From assembly GCA_965655095.1 (NCBI GenBank), contig OZ296650.1, positions 53,754,001 to 53,818,000 on the forward strand: DNA of 64,000 nucleotides. Reading direction: 5' to 3'. The DNA comes from Haplodiscus bocki (lineage: Eukaryota). The notes under the pieces were generated by a model, which was given only the letters and a program-made list of their open reading frames with translations, had not been told where the DNA came from and made no database searches. Made by a program: the position numbers and the translations under genes. Of this stretch, positions 33,050 to 60,055 are shown in pieces. Positions within the stretch are counted from its first letter, which is position 1, and each line of letters begins with the position of its first letter.

Positions 33050-34034
33050 TTTCTCATATATCCGTGGTGACAAGACAACTTAAGAGACGCTGAGGGTTTT
33101 AGGACACGCACACATGAGGCAGTTTTCCCGGTCTCTGATCCGCAAGAAAATATCGCAAAGTGTAAAAAGAAATAAGAAACAACTAAAAAAACTGTGGACT
33201 GATTTTACTTTACATGGACTCCAGGATAAGGTTGTGTCATTGATAAGCTCTGAACAAAGAAGCAAATGCTCTTTAGTTACCAAAAAATATTTTCGTTGCG
33301 CTTTCTTTTGTCAGTAGTGCTTCTTTAGCTTGTCTCATCAGTCGTGTCTTTGATTTGTTAGTTGCCGCTGTGGATTGGTTTTTCCCGGAACATGGATCTT
33401 CTTCTATATATGATAAATCAACAAATCATTTTTGGCCTCAAAGGCACTGATAAGACAAAAGAACCGTTTAACTACATAAATTTAAATAACAAAGGAGTCT
33501 GGAATAATGTAAAATACAACTGCGATTTTCTGAAAATTCCTGAAGGAGTATCTCTGTTTGTGCTTCCGGGTGGTCGAGCTAAATCATGGCAATTTGCTTT
33601 GAAAATTGATGAAAAACTCCTGACATACCAGACTTATGTTTCAATGGAATGTGCAGAAGGACAAGGTAGTCAATTTTAATTTTCTTCGTATACATTACAA
33701 CGTTTAGCTAAATATCCAAGTAACTCGTCTCAGGCCCTTGAAAAAACTTCAAACAAGACCGACTGTTACTTTGAAGAAATCAAACATGGTTTGGCACAGA
33801 AGCTTTCTCAAAAAGGAAGACTCTGGGAAATTAAATCTCGACTGTCTGCTTGGCTGCAAAAGTTTTCGGCGCCTACTTTGACATACCTTTGGTTCAAGTA
33901 AACAAACTGTTGATAATCAGACCTGTACTCGTTGCTAAATCAGCCAGTGATTTATCTATCTCCAAAAGAAAATTTTTGATAGACAACAAGTAGCAGTATA
34001 AATTGCATGTTTTGTGATGAGAAGAAAGTTTTGT
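33050..34034 (+). pseudogene. Decayed ORF of unknown family (copy A), truncated by the assembly gap
   Basis: Broken frames LSFVSSASLACLISRVFDLLVAAVDWFFPEHGS and VWNNVKYNCDFLKIPEGVSLFVLPGGRAKSWQFALKIDEKLLTYQTYVSMECAEGQGSQF align by eye with the - strand ORF interrupted by the Polinton. Confidence 0.6.
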
Positions 34035-34234
34035 NNNNNNNNNNNNNNNNNNNNNNNNNNNNNNNNNNNNNNNNNNNNNNNNNNNNNNNNNNNNNNNNNN
34101 NNNNNNNNNNNNNNNNNNNNNNNNNNNNNNNNNNNNNNNNNNNNNNNNNNNNNNNNNNNNNNNNNNNNNNNNNNNNNNNNNNNNNNNNNNNNNNNNNNNN
34201 NNNNNNNNNNNNNNNNNNNNNNNNNNNNNNNNNN
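34035..34234. other. Assembly (scaffold) gap of 200 N
   Basis: A run of exactly 200 N; the round size suggests a placeholder gap. Confidence 0.99.
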
Positions 34235-37200
34235 CTGATTCAAACGTACCAGACACGAAAGTTCTCTACTTCTTCTAGCTAGAATCATCAGCATACAGCG
34301 AGAAGATCGTAGAAGCAATGCTTCGAAAGTCCCTTTGGGGCAATTGAATATTAACCGTAAAGTAGAATGTTTCCACAAAGCAAAACAAACCCACTTTTTA
34401 CTGCTATACATTTTGTCATAAATTCACACTCTTATTTTAACCACCAAATCAGTGATAAAATACTAAGCGGGGTTGCCATCTTCAAGTTTTATCAGAACTC
34501 TGTTCAATTTCGCCAAAAAACACAACCATTGTTTAAACTGTTTTCACGAAACAATAAACAAACAGCTCACGTTTTCACGGCAAGAAGAAAACGTGTTTTT
34601 ACTAATCAAGCTAGCAAAGTACAGACACGGAAAAAGCAAGATAAAAGCTGCTTTGACCACAGATTTTGATTTTTTCTTACACCAAAGCAAATCCCAGTTT
34701 ATACTAATAACTGTTGAATATTGCCTGAATATTCTCAAAAATGGTGCAGTGTCCTATTTCAAAGTAATTTGAGGGAACTACGGACATGAAGAGAATTCAG
34801 CTTTGCAGTCGTCAGAAAATCAAATAACTAGCTCAGTACAGGGTCCAACTGAGTATCTCTTCTGGCATTGTTAAAAGTTTTTTTTTGCTATTTGAGTAGT
34901 ACACTTTTCACAGGTAACATTTTCGTTTCCGTTGATGAAAGACGTTTAAGTACGGAGTTTTCAATGGAAGTTCCTGTAACAAACGTTGTGGTAGTAGCAA
35001 TCGGACTCTATCAAAGTGAAAATCATGAAGGAACCTAAAATTAGCAAGTTTTCTTCAGCATTTCATACCATAGATGAACTGACTCTTAAAATCTGGTTTA
35101 CACTGACGTGAAAGAAATTGCCACTCAGTTTTTTATTCGTCAAAACCGAAACTTGTTTTTTGGTGACAACAAATTGTTGAAAAGGCAAACGAGGTGGGAC
35201 AAGTTACGCTGTCAGAGTGGGAGCCTGTATGAGACATTTAACCAAGCTGAACATTTTTCTGCTGCAGTTTTTCAGGGTAATTTCCTATCAAGTGTCACTC
35301 AAATTTGCAGAGGCAACAAGAAAATATTCGTGTGTAATAATTTTACTGTACAGTTTATATCAATGTAACATCCTCATGCAATATAGTAACTAACAAAACA
35401 GCCGATTTGAAGAACACAATGAAGCTTTTAAAGCCCAGACCACATATGAAAAGAAAATCAGAGAAGATAACAAAATGATGAATTTGTAACTATGGTATCG
35501 ACAAAAATAAAACACCGCTCCCAAGTCGGCAGTTTGTGCGACGTTTGACTCCGAAAATCAAAGCAAGGAATCCTTAGGTCGGAGTTCAACTAGATAAATG
35601 CTTTGGTTTTCCACCATGTCAACGTAGACTCCAAGAGGCAGTATTGTTCAAAAATTTGGTCGTCGAATCTTTTTTCAGCTGCTATTTGTGAAAAATGTAC
35701 CAATAATATCATTCAAAAATCTTAAGGAGGACAGAAGTTGTTGACGACGGTAGACATGCAAATATCACAAAACTTCGCAAAAGCAACTGTTTACTGCACA
35801 CGTCGGAGGCAAAAAAGGTCCAATAACATTGAAATTTTGGATTTGATTGCACACAAGATTTACACAAAGACAATTATTTGAAGTGTTTAACAACAAAACG
35901 TTTTTCCAGCGTAGGAACTACAGTTTTCTGCAAACTGAACAAAAAACTTCCAGCTGTGCTCAGCTCGTTGCAAGAGCAAGTGTGGGTTTCTGTTTCTACT
36001 TTAGAAGGTTCATATTTGTCTAAACCATGGAGTGTAAACAAGACCATTGCTGCAACCCAGAGAACGGAAATAAGATTTATGCAAATGACCCAGAACAAAA
36101 AACCGTCAATACGACACTTGTTCGGGCTCTACTGTTCATTTATATGGTCAAATTGAAGACGTAAAAAACTTGAGTTTGGGACCTAATGACCAATAGACTG
36201 CTTTATAGGGACATATTACCATCAATTGACCAAAAAACGATAAATAACTTGGACGTGGCGCCAATTGAAATTCTAAGGAGCACACGAAGACTTTTCTCCT
36301 AACAATGTAGGTGTCACTTGTAGGTGCTATTTTAATTGAAATACAATCGCATTCATGACCATATAATGACGATGGCTCCATAACAGGCAATCACATAACA
36401 CTCTCTCAGTTTTCATTGAATCAGTTCTTAGGAAGGTGACCAGATAAACATTTGTGCTGTTTGTCATCTGAGCTCAGTTGTTAAGCATTGTGTTAAAATA
36501 GGGTGCAAAGCCGGTCCTTCTTTGATCTTAGACCCACGGTGATAAGCCCTTGAAAATGTTGAGCACTTTCTTTTTTGTACAAAGGAAGGTTATTTTCCTG
36601 CAATGGATGAAGTTATGTTAAGGGTGGGGACAGTTATGGTAACACTGATGTGGGTTTGAGCTCTAAATAACTTAGAATCTTCCTTTCGATGAAGCATCGG
36701 CATTTCTGTTTACTGCCGAAACCGGGGCAAGTCAGGTTCGTACCCATTTTTGAAAAATTCAGATTCTTGTGGGATTCAATTTCTTTGCATTGGTCTCCTA
36801 TCTAAACGCTTTTTCCACCTCATCCAGAGTGCTGTAGTATGAGAAGCACTGTTGATCTGTCAGCAGTCACTGTTCAAATCGCTTTGTCCATAGGCAAAAT
36901 GGAAAGTGTCTGTTTTCATAAAGTTAGTGGCTTCCAGTTGATAAGCGAAAAGGCGTGTGTTGCAATTTTTTGTTGTAGATGTAGTGATTCAATCCAAAAC
37001 ACATAGTATCATTTAAAATCCGCTCGGTACTACCACTCTTCTTCATTTATGGCCACTGAAACAATCAGTCAGTCACAATTTGGAAAACAATCTGTGATTC
37101 AGTTCGTTGAACAGATTTTTCTCAACCTGTCAAAATTTGAATCCGACAAAATAAAACGCTTCAGAATCCAATTCTGGTGTCCGCAGTTATCTGTGATTTT

Positions 37201-37399
37201 GTATCAAAATTTTACAAATTGTCATATTGTTAGACTTTGGACGTTTCTGATGTATGATTTTGAACAGAATGTGGTTAAACAAACAAGTTTTTGCGTTTTC
37301 TTCCGTGTAGACATATGTTTGCCTTTTTAGTGCTTTTCAAAACAGCAGGTTTTTGTCACAGGACATTTATTCAATGAAAACAGAAACTGATTAAAAAAA

Positions 37400-37550
37400 A
37401 CTCAAAGTGTAAGATTTCGAATCAAACTTCCTAAAAAGTTACAGAAATCCTTCAAAAACTACACAAGGTGTCAGATTTAATATCAAAATATTTACAGCAC
37501 CTCAGATTTTGAGCCAACACAATTGCAACTTGTGAGATCTGGGTCGTACT
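37400..37550 (+). repeat. Degenerate ~30-bp repeat resembling the Polinton internal array
   Basis: gtgtaagatttcgaatcaaa, acaaggtgtcagatttaatatcaaaa, acagcacctcagattttgagccaa and acttgtgagatctg resemble the (ac/cg)..gtcagattttgaatcaaaa units at 50985-51530. Confidence 0.55.
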
Positions 37551-40500
37551 TCCATTGCAGTTCCTCGTTTTGCCGTAAGAAAAAAGCAATCTTTTCACAA
37601 AAAGGACAACTCCCAAACAGGTTGGCATTGTTTTACAAATTGTTCAGCCGCTAACACCGCGAAATGTTGCAACCTGTTCTCGAGATTGCAAGGGTTTACA
37701 CTAACTTCGTTTTTTATCGAAGTTGCACCTTGTACAAGTATTTGCTACGGTCGTGAAAGCGTGAGCCCAACAACTCGAGGACTGGTGGGAAAACAAACTG
37801 TGCCGTTCTTGAATTTTCTCTTGAGGTATTGCTTCTATATCTTTGCTGTTGACTAAGAAAATCAAAGCAAAAAAACAGTTTTCCAATTCTTTTTTGACTA
37901 ATTGACCCCGCTGCACCAACAATTGCATCTTGATTGGTGTTGCAATGATCAACAAAACTGTGACAAGAACCGCACTAAGACCAAACGAAAACAGTTGTTG
38001 AGCACGGAAAAACACAAACCATCTTTACGACACTGGCAAAACTTCTGAAAATTTAAGTGGAATAATCTGAACAAAAAACTGGCAGGAAGAAATTTATTTT
38101 TTTGGTACTGTGACCGATTGGAAGACTGGCTGTTCTCTGTGGCGCCGATGAACATTCGAGTGAAAACCTCAAATACTTCTTTTGCTCTTTCCGTTGACGG
38201 TTTTTCGGAAGTCTGTGATCAGTTCGGGGAAGGATGGAAACAATCAAAGGTAAGTAAACTTGCTGATTTTTTAGTGTTTCGTTTGCATCGGAAGTGATAC
38301 CGTCTCGAATCAGAACCTAAAGAAATGTTATATAGAAAACATTTCAACTCATACAATCTGATCGATGAATCAAAAAGAGTTTGCGCAGAGTTGTTTTTCC
38401 AGCCAACAGTTCCTCCTCTGATGTGAAAAATCTTTCCTCTTGTATCTGTCCGGGGGCTTTAGCGTTGACTGGGGAGATAGTTGAGCCCTGGAAGAAAGGA
38501 ATGATCTTTGATTTTTCAATATTTGGCAAACACCAAGGTGTTTATTTGTAGAGTTTCAGGTAGAAGTAGAACAAGTCTCTCCGAACTGTAAAGTAGAAGA
38601 GTCAGAATCAACTTGAAGAGACCATCTCAAGTGTTTTCCGTCAATGACCGCAGCTGTCAAATGTCTTCTATTGAGGAGAAGTGAAATTGGCGGTTTTTTT
38701 GTTCAAGTAAGCGGCAAAGGAGCAAAATTCTAGCTGTGGTCTTTTTCCTAGGGGCTTCAACCTGGAGAAACTCAAGAAATGTCTTGTGACTTCCTTTTAA
38801 GGAGGCAAAATCCTTAAATGGTCAATCAAACAGTTGTTTTTTGGAAGACAAAAGCAGTTGCCGATGATGACACCCCCAGTTTAGGAAAAAAAACTTTTTG
38901 CTTATGCGTCACCGTTCCTTCCAGCAGTACTTACCGTTTGATTTTTCATTTTTGGGTCGATTGATGGGATTATGTCTGTATGAAAATGTCCATTTGACAT
39001 CAAGTATCAGAACCAAAATTGAATATAATCTTTTTGACTCCATGAGAGAACAAGATACCCTGCAGACTTCTCGTACTGACGCTTTCTTGTCCACGGTCAT
39101 TTGCACAAATACTCTTTCGTTTCTTTGTGTTGCAGTAATGATGTTGCTTAGCTGACATGGTTTAGGCGGAGTTGAATCTAATCGACTCGAAAAGAGAAAA
39201 ACAGTTTTCAAAATTTGCTCAATCAAAAATTTGTGCACATGTGGTAGCTTTTTTTAGGTTGTATGAATCTGAAGTGACTATTCTGGAAAAACGCCCTGTG
39301 GTTATATACCTCAAATAAATCACTTCCTGTAATTTTTTTGTGCGATCAAGTATAGTTTCTCATTGTCAAGAGTTCTTTTCCGGCATTCCACGTCTGCAGT
39401 GAACAGTTGCTTTTGTGGAGTCTTGCAATGTTTCCCAGACTAACGTCGTTGAGGCCCCCGGACCTCTTTTTGATTTTTAAATGAAGTGGATGTTACTTTT
39501 TTCCCCGATATCAGCAGAAGAGTTGTTCGATGACCAAAAACTTGAACAGTGCTGTGTTTTGGCGTGTACGTTCGCAAGGTAGAAGACCCAATCAGTTTTC
39601 AACCTGTAACGTGAAGTTTCATTGCTCTGATTGTAAGATTAACATGTCGCACAACCTGTCAACGTGATGGTTGTGTTTTACACGAGTCGATACCAAAGAT
39701 ACATAAAAGTCAATCTAAAATATACTGCAAGAACTCTCAGGGTAAAACATTGGCGTATTTTTGCTTATACAGCAGAAACTTGAAGTCTCTCCAGGAAACC
39801 ATTTTTTGACAACTACAATTACAGAATAAAAACGTTTGCTCCAGTGATATGGTTCGAAAAAGAGTTCAATTGTTGCAGGGGCGAACTCAGTATTACATTA
39901 GAAACTGAACAAAAATTTATGACGGACTAGTCTTGACATTAGGACATTGAAAGAGTTGGTGTATTGACACTACCGTTTTTCCAACTAATCCATATCCGGC
40001 AGAAACAATATGGGATCACCTTCTATCCAATCAAATGTCTTTGACCGTTTCAAATGTGTCATGGAAGTCTAAATTTTAGACGCTTCATTGTGTCCATCAA
40101 AAACGGGTGCAATCTCATGTTCAAAGGTGAGATCTTAGCATCTGCACTGAAATTATTGATCAGTAAAGAGAAGAAGAAGTCTGCCTCCATAATTATTTAT
40201 TCACCTACCGACATACCTACATACGAACCGTAAGCTAACATTCTTTTCCTTGCATTTCGATGACTGGATTGAAACTTAAGTTTTTTTCGCACAATTTTAC
40301 ACCTGTTGGGGAACCTGTAGGAGCAAAAAAAGCTCAGCAGGGATATCATTTTATCAGTTTTGACATGAAAAACAAACACGGAACTTTGTATCATAGCAAT
40401 AGTTTTCAAAACTTCATTTGCAACAAAAAGTTTTGAATGTGTGGTCTAGTGATTGGAATCTTTATGACGGTCATCAAGTTGGCTGCTTTGTTTAAAACTA

Positions 40501-40999
40501 GCACCCACGTGGGCGGCTCCGGTTCTCTTGAACTCTAAGTTATATGTTTACTTGGAAGTTATTTCTTGTTGCTTCTGCAATTTTCATTGACACTTGATAC
40601 GGAAGTACCTGGGGAAGTTCCCCGTGAAAGTTGTTCCTTTTGGTTAATTTTTTCGTACAGGCCCTCGTTTTCTCCGCGTACCATGTCTTCCCTGGTTAAT
40701 CCTTTCAAACAATATGATTTCAGTTGAAATCGAGTTCCAGTTTTGAAAACTATATTTGGGTACTTTTGTAAAAGTTTTCTACTTCAAGGTAGAAGGCTGT
40801 TTCGTCGTGTTTAGGCCATTTCATTCATGGACAGGATACCTTTAAAACTACTACGCTGTTGTAATACTGAGACTTGCTATTACGTCAAAAGCAGGCCTCA
40901 CTTTTCGCTCCCTTTTTTCCCAAAACTCTTTCTTCACTAGTGCAAATCAATATGGAAGTTCTCTAGTTGCTAAAAAATTATAGTTTTGTTCCACAATTC

Positions 41000-42133
41000 A
41001 GATTCCTGTTCCGTATCTGACCATCGTCACCTGAAACGACTTGTTGCTTTGAAGACTGTAGCAAAAAAAATCGGCAAGTTAAGGGACGTTCTGTTCAATT
41101 ATCAGTTTGCTCATTGTTTCTATAACTTGTTCAAATTCAGACTCATTGCAAGCATGTGGACAGAAGAGGGGCAATATTTCGTTATCGTGGAGAGAGCTGT
41201 TAGTTTTATTCGAAACTTCACATTAGCTGAGGAAATGAAACATATTGCTAAGTAAAATCTTCTGAAGAAGCTTTTCAGGATACTGAAATCTTTTTTTTTC
41301 AGAGAACACAAACCGCAAAAAAAGGAACAGAGATTAGCTGAAACGCATTGCATACATCGGGCAAACTTAATTCTGAACAGATTGCGCGGAAGTCAGTGAA
41401 AAATTCCGACAACTTTTGAACGGCAAAACCAAGTTTTTTTCAAAATTTTTTTTCATCACGTACCACTCGAAGTACAATGCAATTTGTCTCTGTTGAAATT
41501 GTTAACCTTGAACGGATATTTCACCATCTGTTTTGTCAACCAGTACATGTTTGCTTTTCAACAGTTTCCTCAGACATGAACCAAAGGCATGCGAGAATGA
41601 TTTCTGAAAAGTCTTTGGGACCACCAGACAGTACTGAACATAAATCCAAGCCCTTTCTTTTCCGACACAAGCTCTCCGCAGAAATTTAACTGATTTTTTC
41701 AAGTATCTCTGGGCATTAATTGAAGTTTTTTTTTAAGCTAGTGACGCATCAGCTGAACATTCATCTGAAAAACAAGGAATATACGGAAAAAAATTCACGT
41801 TTGGCTTTTATGTTTTTCCGAATTTTCCATCAAAACACAGACCGGGTATGTCAAGAAAGCTTTATCAAACATCAAAACAAAATGCCAAGATTCAGGCCGA
41901 CAACTGAAAACGAAAGCATACGACCATACTTCCTTTGCAAGTTTAACAATGTCGTAGTTGTATCTTACAGTTTTCTTGACTCATCTGATATTTTTTTTGT
42001 AGTTAAACCGTTACTTTGTCATATCGGTGTCTTGGTACATAGAATCAATGCCAGATTGTCATTTTTGTAAGCAGAATCATGTTTCAGAAAATCTAAAAGG
42101 GCAACAAAGCAATCAGTGAAATAATTGATCAGA
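41000..42133 (-). pseudogene. Decayed ORF of unknown family (copy B), 3' part, interrupted by the Polinton
   Basis: - strand reads CLINYFTDCFVALLDFLKHDSAYKND...VKKTVRYNYDIVKLAKEVWSYAFVFSCRPESWHFVLMFDKAFLTYPVCVLMENSEKHKSQT; homologous to copy A. The 3' boundary is approximate. Confidence 0.6.
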
Positions 42134-42139
42134 CAGTTC
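42134..42139 (+). repeat. Left target-site duplication CAGTTC
   Basis: An identical 6-mer flanks both element ends (42134-42139 and 59667-59672); 6-bp TSDs are typical of Polintons. Confidence 0.97.
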
Positions 42140-42800
42140 AGTAGTAAGAGTGTGAGCTGAGGTGAGCAGGGGGCCTGAGGACTCTAATGTATTAGGATAA
42201 GCTACAGCTAGCCGACTCTAGCCGAGAACCGAGAAGGGTCCTCACTCTAGCCGAGAGCTCTCGGTTGACGTAATACTCAACCCGGGCGACGTAATGCTCT
42301 GTTCTGATTGGCTGACGACTCGGGTTACGTAAAACTCGATTCTGATTGGCTGCCGAGAGCCGAGGGTGTTTGGCTCGGATGATATAATACTCGATCCTGA
42401 TTGGCTGCCGAGTCGTGTCGGTTCAATTTTTTAGGATATGGAGCCGAAAGCCGAGTCAAGGTTTTAAGGTAGGCGATGCATGTAATAAGATATGGAGCCG
42501 AGAGCCGATAGTCGAGTCAATGTAAAAACATAGGTAAAGCATGTCTTAAGATAGGGATGCATGTATTAAGAAACGCAAAGGGAATCAGTAATGTATAAGC
42601 ATAGGCTATAGTTCGTCTCATTGTATAAAGATATGGAATGACTCTTTTTCGGCAGTGTGCGACAATTTTCGGTACTGTGCGACTTTTTCGAAAAAAAAAA
42701 TGAGAAGTTTTTGGGTGCCCAGCGCCCGCGCGTATAATTATTACGCCTGCGGATAAATATTCCACCTACGCATAAATATTACGTCTGCGGATACTAATAT
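42140..42800 (+). repeat. Left terminal inverted repeat (~650 bp)
   Basis: AGTAGTAAGAGTGTGAGCTGAGGTGAGCAGGGGG... is the reverse complement of 59025-59666, ~85% identical over the first 100 bp by manual count. The inner boundary is approximate. Confidence 0.95.
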
Positions 42801-42904
42801 GACTTAAGGCTATGTCAAACTTTGTGTAATAGTTCGAAAAAGTTAATTAAACTCTATAAAAATGGACAAAAACATGATATAAACTGCACATTTACATGAA
42901 AAGA

Positions 42905-43297
42905 TTACGTGTAATTACTTTCAAAAGAGAGTACATTAACATCGTGAACCCCTGTAGTTTGTTCCTGTTGATACTTGAAGAGATGAAAAGCTGCATATAT
43001 TGTATAAAAGCCGCATACACTTGGGTGAGACTGTAGGGTGCTGGCATCATCTGTTTGTAGTGCTGCTTGAGAAAACTGTACCCTTTACATCCAAGAGATT
43101 CTGCAAGATATAACTCGTGTCGGAAATTTGCAATCATGATCCAATGTTCACCCTGCATATTGCTGGGTTGCGTGTTGATAATAGCAAAAGTGTCATTATC
43201 AAGAGTTGGAACACAGTCTGAAGGAAACGAACCGTGGTACCGAAATTTGAGCAGAGAGACACGACTGATAATTTTTTGTCAGAGCAAAATTCTTCAT
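42905..43297 (-). pseudogene. Adenain-like (C5) cysteine maturation protease, frameshifted
   Basis: Joined frames give FRYHGSFPSDCVPTLDNDTFAIINTQPSNMQGEHWIMIA...LYLAESLG...LQSHPSVCGFYTIY, with catalytic His (EHW), an acidic residue, Gln and Cys (VCG). Confidence 0.9.
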
Positions 43298-43299
43298 TC

Positions 43300-48524: not shown

Positions 48525-48733
48525 GACTAACGAAAAAAAAGAGTCCAAATAAGAGTTTCCATAACAATGAGTCCACCAAAGTTAAATTTTTGGTCCATCT
48601 CACGTAAAAAAAGACTAGAAACCCAAAAGAAACACGCGCTTCGAAATAGGTTTTTGTGAACACTATTGTGTTCAAATGACATTTTTGATTCCGGGTACAA
48701 TAAAAAAACGCTAATTAAAAAGAGAACATCCAT
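48329..48733 (-). pseudogene. Small accessory protein with an HxxLHD motif (possibly PLA2/DUF1353-like)
   Basis: ...FGGLI...*SKVFRLHAILHDAAGAVRSHSGNGPGYYHMIGRGPNSCLLGYVTGL...VDF*, with an internal stop. The family call is inferred from the HD motif only. Confidence 0.45.
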
Positions 48734-48750
48734 TCTTGACTGAGCTTGTT

Positions 48751-49035: not shown

Positions 49036-49228
49036 TTGTTGAGTTTTTACCAGAGTTAGCGTAGATTTTTGGGAGAAACTTCTTTTCTAAGTAAAACATG
49101 ATACAGTCCCAGTTTTGTTTTGAACTTGAGGAAGAAGTTTTTATTATCTCCAAGAAACTGAGAGTTCCAAGTCATCTTGATTTGAATGAAAAGAGCAATT
49201 GATTGGAGTAAATAGTTGCAATTACTTT

Positions 49229-49809
49229 TTACAAAGCATTACAAATAGGTTGGTTAGCAAATACTTTATCATACACTGACTTCATGACGTCAAGAAGACA
49301 TACAAATTCCTTAAGTTTACAGTTGATATACACAATTTGCTTAAATTTTTCTTCCTGCGCCTTCCGTCCAAATAGACGAACTTGGGCATAGAAGTTTTGA
49401 GAGTTGTCCACCTTGTATCGCAGCAGTGTTACACAAATCCTTCTCTTTAGACAATCCACAACGTCAATCACCTTGTTACCAAGCTTGAGTTAATCCTCCA
49501 TGTCTTTGGACAGTGTAGATTGAAGCACTGGCGACAAATTTTGTCCCCTGAGAAAGTTGTCTGCTGCAACAACTAGTTGGTTTCTTTGTCGAATAAACTG
49601 GCTGAAATCAGCTTCTCCCATTGAAAAGTTTTGCCTCAGTTGAAATTTTGCGTTTTTGTTTTTTATCTTGAACACTTTTAGTTTAATATCCAAGTAGTTG
49701 GAACTTTTTTGGTCCAAGAAAATCGTCCAAATCTGTCTTGACCTTTGCCAAAGTCCACATAGTCGGTACAAATTAGCTTGTCCAAGGTTTCTGTAAGGTT
49801 GTAGGCCAT
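49229..49809 (-). pseudogene. Accessory protein with two tandem PC4/PurA-like repeats
   Basis: MAYNLTETLDKLICTDYVDFGK...YLDIKLKVFK...FQLRQNFSMGEADFSQFIRQRNQLV and YAQVRLFGRKAQEEKFKQIVYINCKLKEFVCLLDVM; one frameshift and one stop. Confidence 0.55.
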
Positions 49810-49972
49810 GACCAAACGAGATAGAATGTTGGTAGCTGAAAGTTATTTTAGTGAATAATAGTTAAAGAATGATTTTGGAGATTCATTTCGTTACTTTTAT
49901 ACGCATTTTTTTGATCATTGTGAAGTGACTTTTCCATAAAAGGAGATTCTTTCCTTTGTCGGTCATTGTCGC

Positions 49973-50607
49973 ATGACATTTTCATTTATGGAACATCTTT
50001 CCTTTTTTGATCGGTTTGTACAGAAAGTAAAAGTATCTTGTTTTTTCAGATGCATTTTGTCAACCTTTATCGCAGTAGAAAGGAGCTTCGGTGGAAGGGA
50101 GCTTGCGTACGGGAGGCAAGATGGCAGCCATTGTGTTACAATCAATCCACAGTTTTTACGCAAAAATTTCAGAGGAAACTCTCTTTGTTTCTGCAAATAC
50201 ATATGAAAAAGACATTTTCTGTAAAGACTACTGCATTGCCCATCACAACAACAAGACGTGTTTTTTACCCGCTTGTAAATGTCATATTGTACTACTTGGA
50301 AACGTTCAAGAGCTACTAAAGAAGTTCGATACATTTTGCTTCACCTATCAACACGTGGACTGCTTGTATACACTTTTCAAGTATCGATTCTTTGTAAAAG
50401 AAGATACAAGTGTTTGATAACGTACAACGAGCAGTTGACTTTCATCAAAGAAACAAGAGAGTGGACAGAACGCCGAGCATTGCAAAAAAGAGGCTCTTAA
50501 GGAAAAGGTACAAAACGCATTTACTCAGTTCTTTTCAAAAAACCAGAAGAGCGCAGACCAGTGGCTCAGTGTTTGCAGAAAGAATTGAAAAAAATGACTC
50601 AAATTGA
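49973..50607 (+). pseudogene. Fragmented hypothetical accessory ORF(s), Cys/His-rich
   Basis: Overlapping + strand ORFs (FCKDYCIAHHNNKTCFLPACKCH...) inside the element; no family recognised. Confidence 0.35.
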
Positions 50608-50699
50608 ATTGGAACTAATAAAATTTGTAGATTGTTTTCTTGATGGTCATGGTAATTATGATATTAAGTTAGTATCTTTTAAAATAAAATCTTTGTAAA

Positions 50700-50880
50700 C
50701 TAACCGTTTTTCGAATTCCAAAGAGACTTGTACAAATCAATTGGTAGTGCAAACGATATAGTCATCACACCCATCAAGAACGCAATTGCTATAAAGAATG
50801 CAATAACCAAAAAGATAATACCAAACGTGAGACAAACACATGCTACAGACTCGTAAAAAATTTTTACCCCAAGCCAACGT
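50700..50880 (-). CDS. Possible small hydrophobic (membrane) protein
   Basis: VACVCLTFGIIFLVIAFFIAIAFLMGVMTISFAL is a long hydrophobic stretch in an open frame; the start codon is unclear. Confidence 0.35.
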
Positions 50881-50954
50881 CTTTCTCTAACTAGTTGTCC
50901 TTTGATGGTTGTAGCACTTTGACAATAAGTCAGCGAGAATCTGAGGGGACGACT

Positions 50955-51535
50955 TTGAAAAGCAGATTTCAAAACAAATTTTTAACAACGTGTCAGATTT
51001 TAAATGTGATTTTTCACAAGGCGTTACATTTTAAAACAAAAAGTTTGCAACAAAAAGTTTTTCTAAGAAGCACAATTTTGACGAAAAAATATTTTTAAAA
51101 AGCACGATTCTGAAGAAAAAGATGTTTTTAAAAAGCACGATTTTGAATTAAAAAAAATTTAAAGCAGATTCTGAAAAAACTTTTTGCACACAAAAAATCA
51201 CGTTTTGATTCTTTTTACCCCGTAAGATGTGCAAATTTTGCGTTTTACGTGCAATTTTAAAAAGCACGTTTTAGAAGGAAAAGTTTTTTCTTAAAAGCAT
51301 GATTTTGAAGAAGAAAAATTGTTTGAAAAGCACGATTTCAAAAAAAAAATTATTTCTAAAAAGCATGATTTTGAAGGAAAACGTTTTTGTAAAAAGCAAG
51401 ATTTTCAATTAAAATGTTTTCGTCTTGTCAGATTTTGAATCAAAATTTTTTCGTCTTGTCTGATTTTAGAACCAAACTTTTCGTCTTGTCAGGTTTTAGA
51501 ACAAATTTTTTACAACGCGTCAGATTTTGAACAAT
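50955..51535 (+). repeat. Internal tandem array of ~30-33-bp A/T-tract units
   Basis: About ten AAAAGCA(C/T)GATTTTGAA-type units, plus (CGTCTT/CAACGC)GTCAGATTTT(G/A) units at 50985 and 51421-51530. Confidence 0.85.
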
Positions 51536-51882
51536 TTACCTAAGTCCACCACATGTACTTTTCACAACGTTGTCTTTTCTATAACCATGTACAGTTACAG
51601 CCTACAATCTCCTCGTCAACTAGATTATAGCACTCTCCACCGTTCAAACAATACTTTTTGTACCCTTTTTCGCAAGGACTTTCGCTTTTGATTTCGCTGT
51701 GATGTCCCACTTTCTATTCTGAAGTTACTTGATATATGCAAAAACCAATTGCTGCTAATAGTAAAGCTTCAACGAATAATACAGTTTTAATCTGAGACAT
51801 GTCTGACTAGTTTTTGAAAAAGTTTATTATAAAATGAAACACGTTAAATATAATTTAAATCAAAACACAAACACAGTAAAAC

Positions 51883-52458
51883 TCATCGAAACAATTTTCT
51901 AAAAACATAATCGGGTACATTTTCTGTTCTTGCTCGAAAAGCGCGACTTTTCTGCAGCCTGGGAGGTTCCATGGGTCTGACAGACTCGGGTGTTGATGAA
52001 GGAGCATTCTCTTTGTCTTCCTGTTCATCCAACACAATGAGGTTTTCAACTGATCCCTCCATAAATAAATCGTCAAAGATTGTTGGAGAGAAAGGGGTGT
52101 CTATGCCTGGTCTGAACACTGCGTCCAACTCCAATTGTGAATTCTCCCAGTTGAATTCTATGTCTTCGAGATCCGACACTTGATAATTGCTGGTATCCAA
52201 GTCTTGAGCCCCCACACTGGACAGTACTTCTTCTCTCATTTCAATTGTTCCCTCTTGGTTGGGAGTAATTAGAACTCGCGCTAGGTGGTTGTTCAAAAAG
52301 ACTTGTCTTTGAGACAAGAGCAATTGCCAGGCTGCTAGGGGTATTTCATGTGAGCTGATTGTTATTTTTTGGTTGAGATCATTTACTGCAATAGTAACAG
52401 AGTCGGGACTAAAATCGAGAGTCCACTGGATTCCGTCGTTTGAGACTGAGAAGATCAT
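51883..52458 (-). CDS. Intact 191-aa accessory ORF: N-terminal beta/alpha domain plus acidic, disordered tail
   Basis: ATG to TGA uninterrupted; VTIAVNDLNQKITISSHEIPLAAWQLLLSQRQVFL followed by a D/E-rich region (VSDLEDIEFNWENSQLELD...FDDLFME). Confidence 0.75.
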   Translation of the reverse strand: MIFSVSNDGIQWTLDFSPDSVTIAVNDLNQKITISSHEIPLAAWQLLLSQRQVFLNNHLARVLITPNQEGTIEMREEVLSSVGAQDLDTSNYQVSDLEDIEFNWENSQLELDAVFRPGIDTPFSPTIFDDLFMEGSVENLIVLDEQEDKENAPSSTPESVRPMEPPRLQKSRAFRARTENVPDYVFRKLFR

Positions 52459-52599
52459 GATTTTTTCTGTAAGTTAGCTGAAGGTTGAATAAAGTTGGCT
52501 GGTTGACAAAAGGTTGAAATTGAATAAAAAGGTTTGAAAAATGAAAATGTTGCTCAAATCATCAGCCAATAGGAAACGGATACGTTTCTTCCACATTTG

Positions 52600-53176
52600 G
52601 ACTCATTTCAACCTTTTTTGTTGCAGGTGACTGTGGTTGGTGGGGAATTGTTCCGAGAAAAAACCTTAATGAACATTTCTTTGTCGGGTAACATCTTTTT
52701 TAGCAAAGAAAAAGCGCGTTTTGTCTGTTTGTGTCGTCTTAATGTGCTCTTGTAACATAAAATGAACTTTGTGAACAAACAACCAGGCTCCACACTTTCC
52801 ACAACCATAAATGGATCTTGGTGTTGTTACATAACCGCAAAGAGGTTCGCATTCCTCTCTGTTCGAAAAATACTTGGCAGGACAAAAGACATCTCCAATA
52901 ACTTTCTGAATTGGGTTTGGGCTCTCTTCAAAAATGTAAACGCTTTTGACCAAGCGACAAGTAAAATGAGTTTGTTTGTTCTTCGAAAAGAATATTGCGC
53001 ACCTGACACACAGACGCGCAATGCGGTCATTGACAATCGGTTCTGCCGGGAGATTCAAAAGTCTTTTTGTGCGGGCAAAGTTTACCCGAACACTTTGTAT
53101 TTGGACAATACACGTTCCCAATGAGAATAAAAGTGCTATTGTCATACCCACAATCTGGAGTGCTTGCGCTGCACAT
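52600..53176 (-). pseudogene. Cys-rich protein with two zinc-ribbon-like units
   Basis: IGNVYCPNTKCSGKLC...CQ*PHC and IGDVFCPAK...LCG...YGCGKCGAW lie in successive frames. Confidence 0.45.
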
Positions 53177-53795
53177 TGTATTTGCTCTCAAAAATGTCAC
53201 ACTTGTAAGCAACAAAAAATCATTTCTTGTAGATATGTTTGATTTCGCGGTAACCCAGGTTGACAACTTCTGTAAGAATGAATTGATCACCGTATTGTTC
53301 AAACTTTTCGATGGAAAATGCGCAAGTCTTGTTCTTTTCAAACCGGAACGATAATCGAAATTGTCTGTTCAAATGGTCAACTGTATCCTTGTAACAATGA
53401 CCGAAAAGTTTGTCTTTTCCTTTTGTAAACCCAATCTCAATTCTAGGTTTGGGTAATGGAATCTGCGGTACTTTGTTGGCTTAATCAAAAGCTTGGAGAA
53501 ATTCACCCAAACTGTCGAGTAGAGACTCAATTCGTTTTTCGGAAGTGCTGACTTCTTCCTTGAGAACAAATCGTTGCTGTAACTTTGAATCGCAAAAATG
53601 AAACACTTTGAATGCAGAAGACTTTTTGTTGGATCCTTTGCCAACTCGAAAGTATCGGTGGTGGGACTGTGAAATGTCCGAATTGTTGTAACAAAAGTAA
53701 CTATCAACGTCGGTTTCGTCCAAAAATTCTTCTGGTATTTCCTCGTTTACTGAATAAAGTTTGCACAAGCTCGAAATTTGCTTTTTGGAACACAT
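53175..53795 (-). pseudogene. Accessory protein with two tandem PC4/PurA-like repeats
   Basis: A single frame with two in-frame stops: ...AFKVFHFCDSKLQQRFVLKEEVSTSEKRIESLLDSLGEFLQAFD*...CAFSIEKFEQYGDQFILTEVVNLGYREIKHIYKK*. Confidence 0.55.
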
Positions 53796-54125
53796 CAACT
53801 GATTATAAATGAAAACAGATTGTAGAATGAAAAGTGGTGTAGCGGTAAAAATAATGCTGATTTGTCAAGGAATTTGATTTGAACAATGACAACACTTTTG
53901 TCCAACCAGATTCCTGTACTGCAACTTTGTCTAATAAATTGTGAAACTGTGGCGGTTGAAAGTTTTGATCAATTTTTGCCGGTGAATACTAGAAATTTCT
54001 AGAACAATCCATAAACAGGTACTTTTAACTACTACGCTAATTGTGCGGTAAACAAAAGGTATATCTTTCATAGGTTGATTGACAATTGAGATTAAGACTC
54101 TTTTGTTCAACTTGAATATTTTTCG

Positions 54126-54290
54126 CAGACTAAGCGTCTACTTAACAGGGGGAAATTTTTGCGCTTGATTAAATTTCTCAGACAGTCTTTCTACTTATCT
54201 GGGGGAATTTTTCCACTTGAGTAGTTTTATCAGACAGTGTGTCTATTTATCGGGGGTACTTGTTTACTTCCCTCAGACAAACTGTCACCT
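54126..54290 (+). promoter_or_regulatory. ~53-bp tandem repeats in the divergent intergenic region upstream of pPolB
   Basis: CAGAC..(G/T)TCTA(C/T)TTA..GGGGG units start at 54126, 54179 and 54231, with a partial unit at 54274. The regulatory role is inferred from position only. Confidence 0.5.
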
Positions 54291-54568
54291 TGTCGGGAGA
54301 TTAAAGCTTTTTTAATTACGTTGTCAGATGTTACGTCTAAACATGGAGGAAATGATTCACAGCTCATGCGGTATTTATTTTTGAAGTAAGTCTTGCCTTT
54401 TATGGTTGCTCTTTCATTTTATGGAATTTTCTGGAGTTTTCTTGTGATTGAGCAATATAATATAAAAATACTTGCTACAAAACTTTAACCATTATCTCTT
54501 TTGCAATGCGAAAATCAAGTAGGTAAAGTTGTTACGTTAATTTTCAGATTATTTTGTATATTACTAAA

Positions 54569-57500
54569 ATGCCTGCTCTGGATCGAAATGTTAAAATTAC
54601 TTGCGGAAATTGTGGAACTTCAGTAACGAAGAAAAATTTATTTCGACACAAGAAAAATTGTTCAGCTGGTACATTGTATTGTTCAAAATGTGCCAATTTC
54701 TTTACAAAATCAAGGGATGATTTAAATTATCTTATTGCCAAAAAACACAGTGTTCCAAGACCTTCAAAAACATACAAGTGTAAACTATGTTATGCAGAAT
54801 TTCCCGGTTTTTATGCTTCACGTCAACACACAAACACTCAACGGGGAACACAAATTGGATTCGGAGTGGGCAATATTGATGTGGAGGATATAGTGGGAAA
54901 TATTGACGATCAAATATTGGGAGAGGAATTGGAATCTTGCAAACACATTTTGACACATACTGAAATGAAGAATGGAAGACACTGAGTCTTCAACTTTCCC
55001 CTGTCATCCTTTGACATTTCTTTGCTCATCAATAAACTGGATTATGTATTCAAAAAGCTGAAATGTGCTGCAAAAGTTAACATTGCATTTGGATTCGTTC
55101 TGAAAAATATTGAGGATGGAATGTGCAGATACTTTTATGCTCACGAGAACAATACGGCTATGGAAAAATCGAAACTTGTGTGTACACCTGACAATATTGC
55201 CAACCTGAAAAAGAAATTACAGAAAATGGATACTTTTGATCTTCGCACACGAGAGAGAGCCAATACAAAATGGAATTTTTACAAACTAACAAATGTGCCA
55301 GTTTTTGCAGAGCTACTCAAAAATATACCCATGGGTTGCAAAGATGCAGTCATACCTGAACCACTTTCGAGAACTTGTAATGTGAATTGGCTTACTTTTG
55401 AGAGAACTAGGAGTGAACCCTACAATAACAATCTTTGTCTTTTCAGAGCAGTTGCTCTGCACTTATTTGGTAACGAGAGATTGGGGGGGAAACATCCGAA
55501 ATCTTCAACATTTTCTTGAACATTTGTGGCGATGGAGATCCATCAACGTTCCAGGGTGTTCAAATGACTGATATTCCGAAAGTGGAGGAGAAGTTGCAAC
55601 TCAAATTTTTCCTTTACGACATTGATTTTGTGGATGGAGAGCTGATTGGGGAACTAGCACGAAGAAGTATTCAAAAGTTTGAAAAGAGCGTCAAACTTTT
55701 ACGTTATAACAATCACATTTGTTACGTCAGCGATATCAACTCCTTATTCAATTTTTTTCGCTGCAGCACATGTGACACAATCTTTTCAGAGACTGGAAAT
55801 TTGAAGCGATTTTTGATTACATGTAGCAAGCGAGTCAAGCACATTTACCCAAAGAATGTATACTAGTTAAGAGAAACTCTCTTTGAAAAGTTGGATTCTT
55901 TCAAAATTCAAAACAGAGAAGATCAGAAGCTGTTCAAAAACTTGGCCAATTTTGATTTCAAATCCGTTTGCGTTAAAGACGAGACGTATAAAGAAACTGA
56001 AACTACAAAATGGATTGGAAGACATGTCCCTATATCAGTCTCAGTTTCGTCAAACCTAACACCAGAACCCATTTTTCTTTGCAATTCAGATCCTCTGCAC
56101 CTTGTACCTTCTTTTATCAGAACCCTTGAAGGCTTGGCAACGCAAAGCGAAGCACAAATGAAATTAAAATTTATTGAAGTAGAGATCGCAATCAACATTA
56201 AACTATCTAGTGTCTTGGAACAACTCAACCAAAGACACAGTCGAAGAGATTGAGTCATTGATTTCGAAGACGACGAGTTTTTCAACGACACTGCGGACGA
56301 GAAAGAGTTGTCTTCTCAGTTCCTCCAATGCAGAAAAACGAACTAATTGATTTGAAGGAACACTTTGAGCGTTATTGTAACACGTTGCCAGTTTATGGTT
56401 TTAACAGTGCAAAATACGATATCAATTTGATGAAGTCGGATCTGTTGCCAATTCTTGTAACGAACGACAAATTGAACCAACAGTTATCAAAAAAGCTGAT
56501 CAGTTTGTTTCCTTCAAGTTAGGTGATGTCCAGTTACTTGATATTTTGAACTTCCTTGGTGGGGCCACTAGTCTTGACTCGTTGTTCCTCAAAGCTTACA
56601 AAACAGTTGAAACTAAAGGCTTTTTCCCCTATGAGTGGTTCAACAATCCCGAAAAGTTGAACAAGAATGAACTACCTGCATACGATTCCTTCTTTAGCAA
56701 ACTGCTTAATATTAATCTTCTCGAGAAAGATTATAACGACTTTGAAAACCTCAGTAATAGTGGTTTATCGAAAGAGCAAGCAGTATGCAAGTTACGACTG
56801 AAAAAGATACCTCCAACAGGTGATGAAAATTACTCATTTTTGCAGAGCATCTGGGTGAGCGAAAGAATGAAATCTTTCAAAGACTTTCATATGAAGTACA
56901 ATAACAAGGATGTTGTTCCAACTCTAGAAGCAATTCAGAAAATGATTGAATTTTACCACCAAAAGGAGATTGATATGTTAAAGTGGGGTTGTACTTTACC
57001 TAATTTGGCAATCATTTGCCTGCATAAATCAACAGACTCAAAGTTTTATCTTTTTACTGAAAGCGACAAAGACTTGTTGGAGAAGATGCGTGAAGATTTG
57101 GTTGGTGGTCCCTCCGTTGTATTTACACGCAAAGCAGTGGTTGACGAAACTTTTATCCGCAAATCAACGGATTTGTGCAAGTCACTTGTCGGCATAGACG
57201 CAAACCAACTCTATCCCTTTTCGATGTGTCAACCAATGCCTACTGGATTGTATGCAAGTTAGAATTATGAAATAGAATGTCAAAAGTTCTGGCCTCGACA
57301 GAACAAAACACGCTCTTTTGAAATAATGGTCCTTTCTTATTTTCAACAATCTCGTCCGGAGTGTAAGATTGAAAGCAATGTTGCAACTGGTAGACAAAAG
57401 GAGATTGATTGATGCAATCTGTTACCAATGTAACACTGTCTTTGAAGCAATGGGCTGTTATTTCCACTACTGTTCATGCCAAGAAGGTCGCCCGTCATTG

Positions 57501-58908
57501 ATTGACAACGAAATTATGAGAGGCATAAGAAAGAGGGAACAAGACCAAATGCGCAAAGATTATAGCCAACAGAAAGGATACAAAACTATTGGAATGTGGG
57601 AGTGCAAGTGTTGGGGATTATACCGAACTGATGCAACAGTAAAAAATCATCATCGAGCAAATTTCCCCTATGAACGGCCTCTCAGCGAAGAACAACTCAG
57701 GCAAGAGATTATGAGTGGGAGGCTGTTTGGTTAGGTTCAATGCCACCTCAAAGTTCCTGAACACCTGGAGGCATACTTTGCCAATCCCAATTTTCAAAAG
57801 TACTGTTGTAAGTAGAATTTATATCGGAGGTTTGATGAAAGAATATGGAGAAAAAAAATGGGATTATGTCACAACCCAGAAGAATGCTCATATCAAGCTT
57901 CCACCTAAAGAATGGAACTATCATCAATCCCTTACTATGATATTACTTGCATCTGGGGCTTGAAGGTACAAAAGTTCAACAATTCTTCAGTATACTCCCA
58001 AGAAGTGTTTCAATAGCTTTGTGCAGTCTGCCATCAATGCTCGAAGATAAAGAGATGAAAATCCCAACTCAAGCGTAGTGGCTGAAACAATGAAATTTTT
58101 AGCAAACAGTTCCTACGGATAGCAGATCATAGATCGGAGTCGACATACTGTGACAAAGTAGTTGAACGATGAAAAGACTCACAGTGCAATTAATAGTGAA
58201 CTTTTCAAACAACTTAACTTCATCAATGATTAATTGTAAGAGGTTGAACTTGTCAAGTCAGAAATTGAGCACCGAGAACAAATCATTGTCGGTTTCTTCA
58301 TTTTGCAATATGCCAAACTCAGAATGTTGGAGCTTTATCATAACCTCTTTAAAAAGTTTTGCGATACCGAAAAGTATGAAGAGCTTGAAAAGGATACCGA
58401 CTCTCTATTTTTACCTCTGTCGGAAGACAACTTAGAAGACAATATTCTCCCAAAAAAAAGAAACGAATGGGAAGCAATACGTTCGCGAGACTGTACTGAT
58501 AGCTTCACTGCGAATGCAACAAATGACTTCTTCCCAAGAACATGTTGTACTGCTCAGAAGAAGCATGATAAGAGGGAGCCGGGACCATTTAAAGAAGAAT
58601 TCAGGTATTCAGAAATGTTGTGCTTGTGTTGCAAAACCTATTGTTGCTACGATCGAAAGAGTAACAAGTACAAATTCAGTAGCAAGGGACTCAATAAAAG
58701 AACTCTGGAAGACTGTGGAGATGGACCCATGTCAAAGTATCGCAAAGTGTTAGAAGAGGCAGCCAACGTTACTTCAACCAGCAGAGGGTTTCAAAAAATG
58801 AAACATAGCGTTGCAACCTACGAACAGACAAAACAGGGATTGTCCTATTTCTACCCAAAACGTCTTGTAGAAGAAGATGGAATACATACTGAACCATTAG
58901 ATTTATAA
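54569..58908 (+). pseudogene. polB: Protein-primed B-family DNA polymerase (pPolB) polyprotein, fragmented
   Basis: N-terminal C2H2-type zinc fingers; NNNLCLFRAV...YNNHICY (OTU-like Cys/His); ExoI NFDFKS, ExoII GFNSAKYD, ExoIII YNNKDV; motif A DANQLYP; motif B KFLANSSYG (~58095-58120); motif C DTDS; KGL. Many stops and frameshifts. Confidence 0.95.
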
Positions 58909-59024
58909 ACTTTTCTTTCAATGCGGTCTTGTAGTTTTATACATTCTATTTATCTTTACCTTGTCCGCTTGTAATTCCATACATTCGAATTAACTTTTTA
59001 AACTTTTTACACAATCTTTTTACA

Positions 59025-59666
59025 TAACATCGAACCGCACACGTAATAAAATATCCGCAGGCGTATTGTTTATCCTCGCGGGCGGTGGGCACCCAAAAAA
59101 ATTTGAAACCTTTTTGAAAAAGTCTCACAGTACCGAAAATTAACGCACAATGCCGAAAAAGGGTCTTTCCATATCTTTATACATTGAGACGAACTATAGC
59201 CTATGCTTATACATTACCGATCTCCTTTGCGTTTCTTGATACATGCATCCCTATCTTATTACATGCATTACCTATCTTAATACATTGACTCGAATTTCGG
59301 CTCTCGGCTCCATATCTTGAAACATGCATCGCCCATCTTAATACATTGAGTCGGCTTTCGGCTCCTTATCCTTACACATTGAACCGACATGACTCGGCAG
59401 CCAATCAGAATCGAGTATTACGTCACCCGAGTCAAACACCCTCGGCTCTCGGCAGCCAATCAGAATCGAGTACTACGTAACGCGAGTCGTCAGCTAATCA
59501 GACTCGAGCATAACGTCACCGGAATCGAGTCTTACGTCACCCCAGAGCTCTCGGCTAGGGGTGAGGATCCTTCTCGGTTTTCGGCTCGAGTCGGCTTGCA
59601 ATAGCCAACCTTAATACATTAGGGTCCTCAAGCCCCCTGCTCACCTTAGCTCACACTCTTACTTCT
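59025..59666 (-). repeat. Right terminal inverted repeat (~640 bp)
   Basis: Ends ...CCCCCTGCTCACCTTAGCTCACACTCTTACTTCT, the reverse complement of the left end. Confidence 0.95.
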
Positions 59667-59672
59667 CAGTTC
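59667..59672 (+). repeat. Right target-site duplication CAGTTC
   Basis: Identical to 42134-42139. Confidence 0.97.
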
Positions 59673-60055
59673 AAGGAAGCAACACCGGTGAAAAAAAAAG
59701 ACCAAATTTCAGATTTTTGGGTGAACATTTGCCATTTGTCTACTCTGTAAGGAAACGGAAGAATCAAATCACTTCATTAAGCGTATCAAAGACAAAAATT
59801 GTCACGGAGATTATGTAAACTGTGAATACGGGCACGTAAGCATTGTCAGATGCACTGCATTGCACTTCATGCTTATAAAAACAATACGCTCATTTGGCGA
59901 TAGTCACAAATTTGAGCGCCAGTGACCTGACCATAATAAAACTGGCAAAAGACAAACACATACAGCAAAGATTTTTTTGCTTGTGTTGATTCAAAACAAA
60001 CTGTCCTGCGCTCAATTAGATGATGGAAAAAGTGTTTCTTTTGTTCTGAAGACAT
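59673..60055 (-). pseudogene. Decayed ORF of unknown family (copy B), 5' part
   Basis: ...DKWQMFTQKSEIWSFFFTGVASLN continues in frame into CLINYFTD at 42133 once the Polinton and one TSD are removed. Confidence 0.55.

Follow-up and report, generated by a model that had tools for sequence, protein, structure and literature searches.

Two similar stretches in a 64,000-nucleotide segment of the Haplodiscus bocki genome (hereafter the window) are very probably the two mirrored arms of a single old and decayed Polinton derivative of palindromic build, and with equal confidence we read the window as containing this derivative with a complete Polinton, roughly threefold younger, nested in it. This reading is based on the collinearity of the old element with a family of Polinton derivatives, the palindromic build of that family, the termini and target site duplications (TSDs) of its members, the sister relationship of the two arms, the absence of codon bias, and the nested younger Polinton. 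The initial annotation had taken the stretches for two copies of a multi-copy gene; phylogenetic trees (100/100) instead identify them as two arms of one element.

Structure of the Inverted Repeat

The two annotated stretches align as DNA (33331–34031 with 42135–41442) far better than shuffled controls, as had been anticipated, with a score of 445 against 57.5 ± 10.9 and a maximum of 94.5 in 60 shuffles; blastn between them gives 63% identity (E 8e-60). The similarity had been described as one of proteins. However, translated matches appear in all six frames, and the annotated frame (E 4e-8, 39%; core peptide pair 40% identical over 80 columns) is surpassed by another plus-strand frame (E 7e-13, 48%) and by a minus-strand frame (E 5e-11, 44%). 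The quoted peptides do occur in the frames given for them, but frame changes and stops lie along the annotated reading path.

The homology had been ended at 34034. It continues in 35140–35452, which matches 40746–40432, and in 35485–36458, which matches 39703–38721 (64–65%), and the annotated region is only the outer part of an inverted repeat of ~3.3 kb (33180–36470 versus 38710–42139 plus 59673–59850). Arm identity is 63–66% overall and the K2P distance is 0.45–0.49. The arms are unequal, since 37455–38700 is absent from arm A and part of the polymerase 5′ region is absent from arm B. Positions 33050–33180, the first 130 bp of the annotated interval, belong to an unrelated ~520-bp repeat that occurs at 67–73% identity in 29 of 29 other loci among the matches listed. 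Across the site occupied by the nested Polinton, the match of 33180–33326 to 59852–59673 stops exactly at the target duplication, as proposed, but it is weak, although in register (score 52 against 31.5 ± 4.9, maximum 55, in 60 shuffles and 33.5 ± 4.2, maximum 45, in a second set of 40). The profile of the spacer that makes up this part of the arms (spacer X), which was built without the window copies, has no match at 59673–59852; the arm B spacer may possibly reach ~60060.

Judging from the order of parts in the old locus C4e, the scaffold gap likely conceals the portion of arm A that matches 41440–40875, and its true length is probably greater than 200 bp. Among the pieces listed, a 1410-bp short-read contig covers 33330–34034 by its first 705 letters only. 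Doubt had been raised about orientation across this gap; both of its sides map in the same order and on the same strand onto related elements, which supports the inverted arrangement.

The nested element confirms the Polinton insertion of the initial annotation. It is bounded by the 6-bp target duplication CAGTTC (42134–42139 and 59667–59672), has TIRs that are 86% alike over 617 bp (K2P 0.147) and AGT-type ends, with one substitution in the end motif at the right terminus, and is bridged at both junctions by short-read contigs. Pfam matches to DNA_pol_B_2 (E 1.9e-8), rve (E 1.6e-8), and Peptidase_C5 (E 0.005, under the curated cut-off) provide the combination of pPolB, rve integrase, and adenovirus-type protease by which Polinton/Maverick elements are recognized. 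A packaging ATPase or capsid gene has no direct Pfam match in the window; the nested DNA is 82–87% identical to copies that match Pox_A32.

Table 1. Features of the old element and its surroundings in the window.
Feature	Position	Strand	Evidence or remark
Inner part of Polinton TIR, left end of old element	31962..32340	+	nhmmer TIR profile, E 1.1e-8
Spacer X of arm A, start	32289..32646	+	X profile, E 2.8e-28
High-copy interspersed repeat (~520 bp), unrelated, inserted into arm A	32660..33180
Spacer X of arm A, annotated plus-strand copy, without coding signal	33180..34034	+	X profile at 33250–33819, E 1.7e-21
Scaffold gap	34035..34234
Polinton polymerase 5′ region homolog	34706..35091	+	62% over ~390 bp to young derivatives, E 1e-25; their segment matches window 54712–54173
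Arm A inner part, common to old-type copies only	35140..36470	+	Matches in C2393, C396, C4e, C12e, C5e
Central region, ending in 31–33-bp tandem repeats	36466..37540		Repeats also internal to complete Polintons (window ~50930–51530)
Arm B inner part	37455..40746	-	Partner of 37455–38700 no longer in arm A
Decayed homolog of a conserved Polinton ORF that spans 226 aa in young copies	40884..41312	+	tblastn E 9e-12; HMM E 4.5e-13; codon-phase z = 3.5
Spacer X of arm B, annotated minus-strand copy, reaching nested Polinton	41442..42139	-	63% to 33331–34031; X profile, E 1.9e-17
Decayed complete-type Polinton, the younger insertion in arm B	42140..59666
Spacer X of arm B, continuation past nested Polinton	59673..59852	-
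Decayed non-LTR retrotransposon RT region adjoining truncated right end	60200..61900	+	RVT_1 E 0.029, under curated cut-off; RT-like motifs visible

Identity and Coding Capacity of the Old Element

The initial annotation was right to suspect a large virus-type mobile element of older date; it considered that element unidentified. Matches to the TIR profile (E 1e-8), the spacer profile (E 3e-28, 2e-21, and 2e-17), and the remnant of the 226-aa Polinton ORF (E 5e-13) identify it as a Polinton derivative. The TIR profile was built from 28 other Polinton ends, and pairwise comparison of the same segment gives 66% over 357 columns (score 100.5 against 46.7 ± 7.3 in shuffles). The ORF remnant lies on the strand opposite to the annotated frame and at the same position in C4e and C396. 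The polymerase 5′ homolog includes a weak zinc-finger remnant (minus strand, 34936–34844; tblastn only E 0.099). By profile and pairwise comparison, the left side of the old element retains only the inner TIR and the right side nothing, and no outer termini or TSD are recognizable; its status as a single element therefore rests on the order of parts and on the trees. The parts of the old element (~31960–60060) have homologs in Polinton derivatives and follow the same order there, and the inverted arms are mutually closest. The retrotransposon beyond its truncated right end may be of CR1/L2 type.

No core replication, integration, or capsid gene was found in the arms by a Pfam scan, which yielded no match at the curated cut-off, or by HMMs of 50 ORF clusters from fetched Polinton loci. 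Arm sequence had no match in Rfam and arm queries no usable match in an Atlas protein search. A LINE endonuclease on the opposite strand was considered as the identity of the arms and lacks Pfam support, and the idea that spacer X derives from a capsid or polymerase gene by decay was dropped, with no tblastn or HMM match.

The codon-phase test gives p = 0.96 for the annotated region and p = 0.87 for the inner arms, compared with p = 0.001 for the polymerase control; with many copies the z values are -1.4, -0.2, and 0.4, compared with 42 for the control. Indels between the window copies are multiples of three in only 2 of 11 cases. Stops in spacer X are shared in every frame, among eight young subfamilies as well as among 11 copies, and none of its frames is depleted of stops over the 11 copies, unlike the polymerase control, in a test limited by register drift. 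Six sites in the annotated frame carry stops in at least 3 of the 10 other copies, four of them in the majority. The divergence carries no codon signal, and the selection that had been proposed to accompany it finds no support. The annotated peptides and a 114-aa inner frame had no homolog in searches of 5.8 billion proteins, 1.84 billion proteins, and viral contigs, which are weak negatives for decayed queries. The claim of a new protein family falls away; none was demonstrated.

An accessory gene of the master Polinton that died before or within the non-autonomous lineage could have left spacer X as its relic, an explanation compatible with the palindromic derivative that we nevertheless regard as unlikely. 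Such a gene would accord with an open stretch of 105 codons at 33362–33676, with the five other old copies, which share no stop in the annotated frame (none is common to three of the five; stop frequency 0.036 against 0.024–0.057 in the other frames), a point that also counts against the palindromic reading, and with the accessory gene that the elements carry elsewhere (see below); past selection would also be masked by neutral decay after insertion. The stop sites in the other copies, the lack of stop depletion, and the failed homolog searches speak against it, as does the antisense frame, in which stops among the old copies are fewer still. Nothing supports a decayed ORF in spacer X, yet a remote ancestor may have had one, since inserted copies degrade neutrally and no stop in this frame is common to the old ones. 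In the arm B inner part, a register with fewer shared stops hints weakly at a former ORF.

A Family of Palindromic Polinton Derivatives

Arm A shares its order of parts with a family of non-autonomous Polinton derivatives that is present in high copy number in the same genome and whose arms consist of Polinton-internal parts in the order inner TIR, non-coding spacer (the annotated region), polymerase 5′ region, and central 31-bp repeats. The tile map of arm A is collinear on four young derivatives, and the order is repeated in mid-age loci and in C4e. The derivatives, too, are palindromes; they measure 13–17 kb, have Polinton termini flanked by 6-bp target duplications, and in many cases contain no gap. 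Young members (12.8–17.1 kb, with uncertain gap sizes) have an AGT-type end motif, long TIRs, and a 6-bp TSD, and share with Polintons a homologous TIR, a protease stub, the polymerase 5′ region, and internal ORFs; they lack genes for integrase, ATPase, capsid, and polymerase. Young copies also carry a 222-aa ORF that falls in no known family and has 1044 database relatives. Its dN/dS values among three genome copies (0.083/0.147, 0.115/0.187, and 0.089/0.082) indicate weak or absent constraint. A 120-sequence HMM of this ORF matches nothing in the window, and we rejected homology of the inner arm to it.

Seven of the 10 young loci sampled were plus/minus pairs, all with kilobase inverted arms at 91–99.6% identity. 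Their TSDs are identical over 6 bp in four and match at 5 of 6 positions in one; another matches after an extra ACT, and the last has an inverted flank. Among eight mid-age pairs, seven list arms of at least 900 bp at 87–96%, and in the remaining one both termini are present together with a TSD; seven of the eight are without an assembly gap. The arrangement of two arms about the shared central repeats is present in 15 young and mid-age pairs, with exact TSDs in five, and arm identity forms an age series in one genome from 99% down to 65% in the window. Some young examples may be misassembled, given the 200-N gap at the center of six of the seven youngest palindromes and the one inverted flank. 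In the tree of the inner region, arms from the same locus group at 100/100 in three of three multi-arm loci, and the window arms are sisters at 100/100 in this tree and in that of spacer X.

These data bear on whether the arms could be two separate old derivatives of one subfamily lying head to head, or the outcome of an inverted local duplication after insertion. We consider this improbable, given that the same layout recurs in the 15 pairs and that arms group per locus as sisters. It would fit the missing outer termini and TSD, the unequal arms, and the three arm copies in each of C2393 and C396, where rearrangement on a local scale or gene conversion has therefore been at work as well; Polintons moreover cluster in one another (4 of 28 ends versus 0 of 86 background flanks; Fisher p = 0.003). 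As a separate matter, target-site specificity of Polintons for the old unit was rejected, as none of 28 other ends has that unit in its 1.5-kb flank, short repeats aside, and in the second case, C2393, it lies ~520 bp from the Polinton. The initial reading, in which a large unidentified element or virus left a protein family in several copies that diverged under selection and was hit by a Polinton by chance, has in its favor the 40% identity over 80 aligned residues and is refuted by the codon-phase test with its working positive control, in keeping with the six-frame similarity, the indel lengths, and the Polinton context.

Origin and Significance of the Palindromes

We posit that the palindromic derivatives likely proliferated parasitically on enzymes that complete Polintons supply, given that they have Polinton ends but lack genes for integrase, ATPase, capsid, and polymerase. 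In the course of protein-primed strand-displacement replication, a nascent strand may fold back or switch template near the central 31-bp repeats. The product would hold one end in two copies and lack the other half; it would retain both origins and the integrase sites, and could be copied and integrated in trans. Its arms would be identical at birth and later drift apart neutrally, to the K2P distance given above in the case of the window. A younger complete Polinton later inserted into the right arm. Far more tentatively, and with considerable doubt, we speculate that the family is a long-lived germ-line lineage of snap-back defective polintovirus genomes that arose by fold-back, are near unit length, depend on complete Polintons for packaging and integration, carry the 222-aa ORF as an accessory gene, and would restrain their helper via long hairpin RNA or competition for the polymerase; the old element in the window would be among its oldest fossils.

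What stands is a class of Polinton parasite defined by its structure, for which a single genome preserves an age series. If the palindromes are fold-back products, they are fossil evidence of the Polinton replication mode and of a size constraint, which would point to packaging. In practical terms, palindrome arms mimic diverged gene paralogs, and assemblers collapse or gap them.

Comparison with Known Systems

Non-autonomous Polintons exist in Repbase. Giant palindromic ones did not turn up in the literature searched, mostly at the level of titles, and families of this kind may be present in repeat libraries. As far as described in the portions of two reports consulted (PMC8097293; PMC4028283), Polinton/Maverick elements share with the young palindromes AGT-type ends, long TIRs, and a 6-bp TSD, and intact vertebrate elements measure ~17 kb, a length that the palindromes approach. 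Maverick virions had not been observed at the time of the former report (PMC8097293, same portions). Unlike these elements, the whole element here is a palindrome with one end present twice, lacks ORFs for integrase, ATPase, capsid, and polymerase, and contains a non-coding spacer, to which young copies add the 222-aa ORF. Snapback or defective interfering genomes of DNA viruses such as AAV, to the extent covered in PMC8235507, are likewise self-complementary, derived from one parental end, and, as is likely for the palindromes, helper-dependent; in contrast, the palindromes are integrated in the germ line, have been amplified over a long time, are known from assembled DNA and short-read contigs, and have a parent that replicates by protein priming rather than hairpin priming. 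Foldback-type transposons (Drosophila FB and Galileo, following the part of PMC3573991 used here) have very long inverted arms and internal tandem repeats in common with the palindromes, whereas the latter have Polinton ends and a 6-bp TSD, with no P-type or other cut-and-paste transposase at the curated Pfam cut-off.

Identification of the inverted repeat

The match that the initial annotation reported between a plus-strand copy (approximately 33180–34034) and a minus-strand copy (42139–41442) is the outer portion of a larger inverted repeat, composed of a left arm (arm A, interrupted by the scaffold gap at 34035–34234) and a right arm (arm B). Arm A, tiled on four Polinton-ended elements, is collinear with them through the inner TIR, the spacer that follows it (spacer X, which covers the reported match), the polymerase 5′ region, a central region, and 31-bp repeats. 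Of the profiles made without the window copies, the TIR profile matches arm A and the spacer profile matches both arms (see table). Only one protein remnant is clear, that of a Polinton ORF (40884–41312); it lies on the strand opposite the proposed reading frame, and the old loci C4e and C396 have it at the equivalent position. Based on profile matches and collinearity, the earlier guess of an older mobile element was right in kind, and we conclude from sequence comparison that the inverted repeat represents an old copy within a family of palindromic, non-autonomous Polintons. The arm orientation had been considered uncertain across the scaffold gap; the assembled orientation is supported because the order of parts on both sides agrees with that on related elements.

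Features of the old element in the window
Feature	Position	Orientation	Evidence
Inner TIR	31962–32340		TIR profile, E 1e-8
Spacer X	32289–32646		spacer profile, E 3e-28
Unrelated inserted repeat, ~520 bp, high-copy	32660–33180		
Spacer X	33250–33819		spacer profile, E 2e-21
Inverted-repeat pair	35140–35452 / 40746–40432	inverted	DNA comparison within window
Inverted-repeat pair	35485–36458 / 39703–38721	inverted	DNA comparison within window
Spacer X	42137–41676		spacer profile, E 2e-17

Copies of the inserted ~520-bp repeat, spaced ~1.6 kb apart, also form a long tandem array on contig C4 (G000:C4:32.18–32.26 Mb). Contig C2393, located when an inner frame was used to query the genome, has the same arms and arrangement as the window, and its outer part matches sequence inside other Polinton-ended elements. 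At L249/L250 (G000:C396), old-type inner-arm sequence directly adjoins a divergent polymerase gene with 60% identity at the DNA level, which suggests that in an older complete lineage the inner-arm region was formerly located downstream of pPolB.

Coding potential

The reported peptides are present, the core pair being 40% identical, and the DNA match of 33331–34031 to 42135–41442 is far above chance (score 445 versus 57.5 ± 10.9 for shuffled controls). On the far side of the nested Polinton the match continues weakly, in register with the TSD. The similarity is not specific to the protein level: matches occur in all six frames, and the proposed frame is not the best. Codon-phase tests on ungapped blocks show no bias either here (p = 0.96) or in the inner arms (p = 0.87), whereas polymerase genes of comparable divergence give p = 0.001, and a many-copy test (9–11 copies per region) gives z = −1.4, −0.2, and 0.4 versus 42 for the polymerase control. 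Two of 11 indels are divisible by three, stops interrupt the frame at six sites in at least three of 10 other copies, no stop-depleted frame was found in spacer X across copies, and no homolog was found in Pfam or protein/sequence databases. The original observation thus holds in part: the DNA match is real, but its interpretation as a protein family is not supported. Counting against our reading, the shared stops are mostly contributed by a younger clade; in this frame no stop is common to the five other old copies (0.036 stops per codon versus 0.024–0.057 in other frames). Because these old copies share no stop and neutral post-insertion decay would erase a selection signal, a remote master copy may have held an ORF.

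Outside the reported copies, in the inner arm at 37455–38700 (minus strand), one register has five shared stops (frequency 0.028) versus 11–15 in the others among 10 old copies. This pattern, fainter in a second analysis, only weakly suggests a decayed gene there.

The nested Polinton and the history of the locus

The Polinton insertion in arm B is confirmed at 42140–59666, with 617-bp TIRs (86%), a CAGTTC duplication, and ORFs that match protease, integrase, and pPolB families. Short-read contigs bridge both junctions and cover both arms at low depth (two samples from one study, from one of which the assembly may derive). TIR divergence is K2P 0.147 versus 0.45–0.49 between the old arms; the old arms came first and the nested Polinton later. 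Within it, a 247-bp direct repeat (98%; 44817–45063 and 48278–48524) flanks the integrase region, with copies 3.46 kb apart.

Same-locus arms group at 100/100 for the window, C396, and C2393 in an inner-region tree (10 rows; C2e, too short, was omitted), as does the window pair in a spacer tree (11 rows). For the window locus alone, two derivatives inserted head-to-head are possible, because the outer termini of its old element are lost. The window arms differ by 35% and so cannot be an assembly duplicate.

Polinton ends (L092–L118, L120) abut other Polinton DNA in 4 of 28 cases versus 0 of 86 background flanks picked around other repeats (Fisher p = 0.003), and further nested cases are the window, C2393, and C5a. 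This clustering could reflect a preference for such targets, or survival of insertions where they are tolerated. Nearby, a second decayed RT element (62900–64000, minus strand; RVT_1 E 3.4e-7) faces the one at 60200–61900.

The palindromic family

Of the 40 candidates scored in a young-spacer search, 39 matched over nearly the full length, and many of the matches form inward-facing pairs. Ten loci were examined: all seven pairs are palindromic (arm identity 91–99.6%), with identical TSDs in four, near-identical in two, and an inverted flank in one; a 200-N gap occupies the centre of six, and one is gapless. The three unpaired loci have partial arms (75–85%) in one case and none or a short arm in two. 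Seven of eight mid-age pairs have long arms (87–96%), the remaining one has both termini and a TSD, and seven of the eight lack an assembly gap. Among six old-type loci, two have inverted arms and one a full single arm. Elements with both ends span 12.8–17.1 kb. The palindromic derivatives keep a protease stub; integrase, ATPase, capsid, and polymerase ORFs were sought in them and are absent.

Otherwise gene-poor young palindromes encode a 222-aa ORF (e.g., L125:4848–5597, plus strand) with 1044 database relatives, the best 120 of which are 77–98% identical and nearly all 222 aa. It matches nothing in Pfam or Atlas, and dN/dS among three copies indicates only weak constraint.

At L126/L127 (G000:C6:55.82–55.84 Mb), the left half is of the normal type and carries integrase and ATPase, but in place of the right half there is one derivative arm without polymerase; such an intermediate may be a stage between complete and palindromic elements.

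Origin and comparison with known systems

Full-text literature searches turned up no whole-element Polinton palindromes, nor did passages of PMC3014272, bioRxiv 2024.01.15.575659, PMC8097293, PMC6431247, and PMC4028283, but repeat libraries or supplements may hold such elements. The structure and homology of the palindromic derivatives are established; as to origin, a fold-back or template switch in protein-primed strand displacement would yield a two-ended palindrome, which complete Polintons could copy and integrate in trans. A role of the end motif in protein priming is discussed for Polintons in PMC8097293. As an analogy for the two-ended palindrome, we offer the snapback genomes described in PMC8235507.
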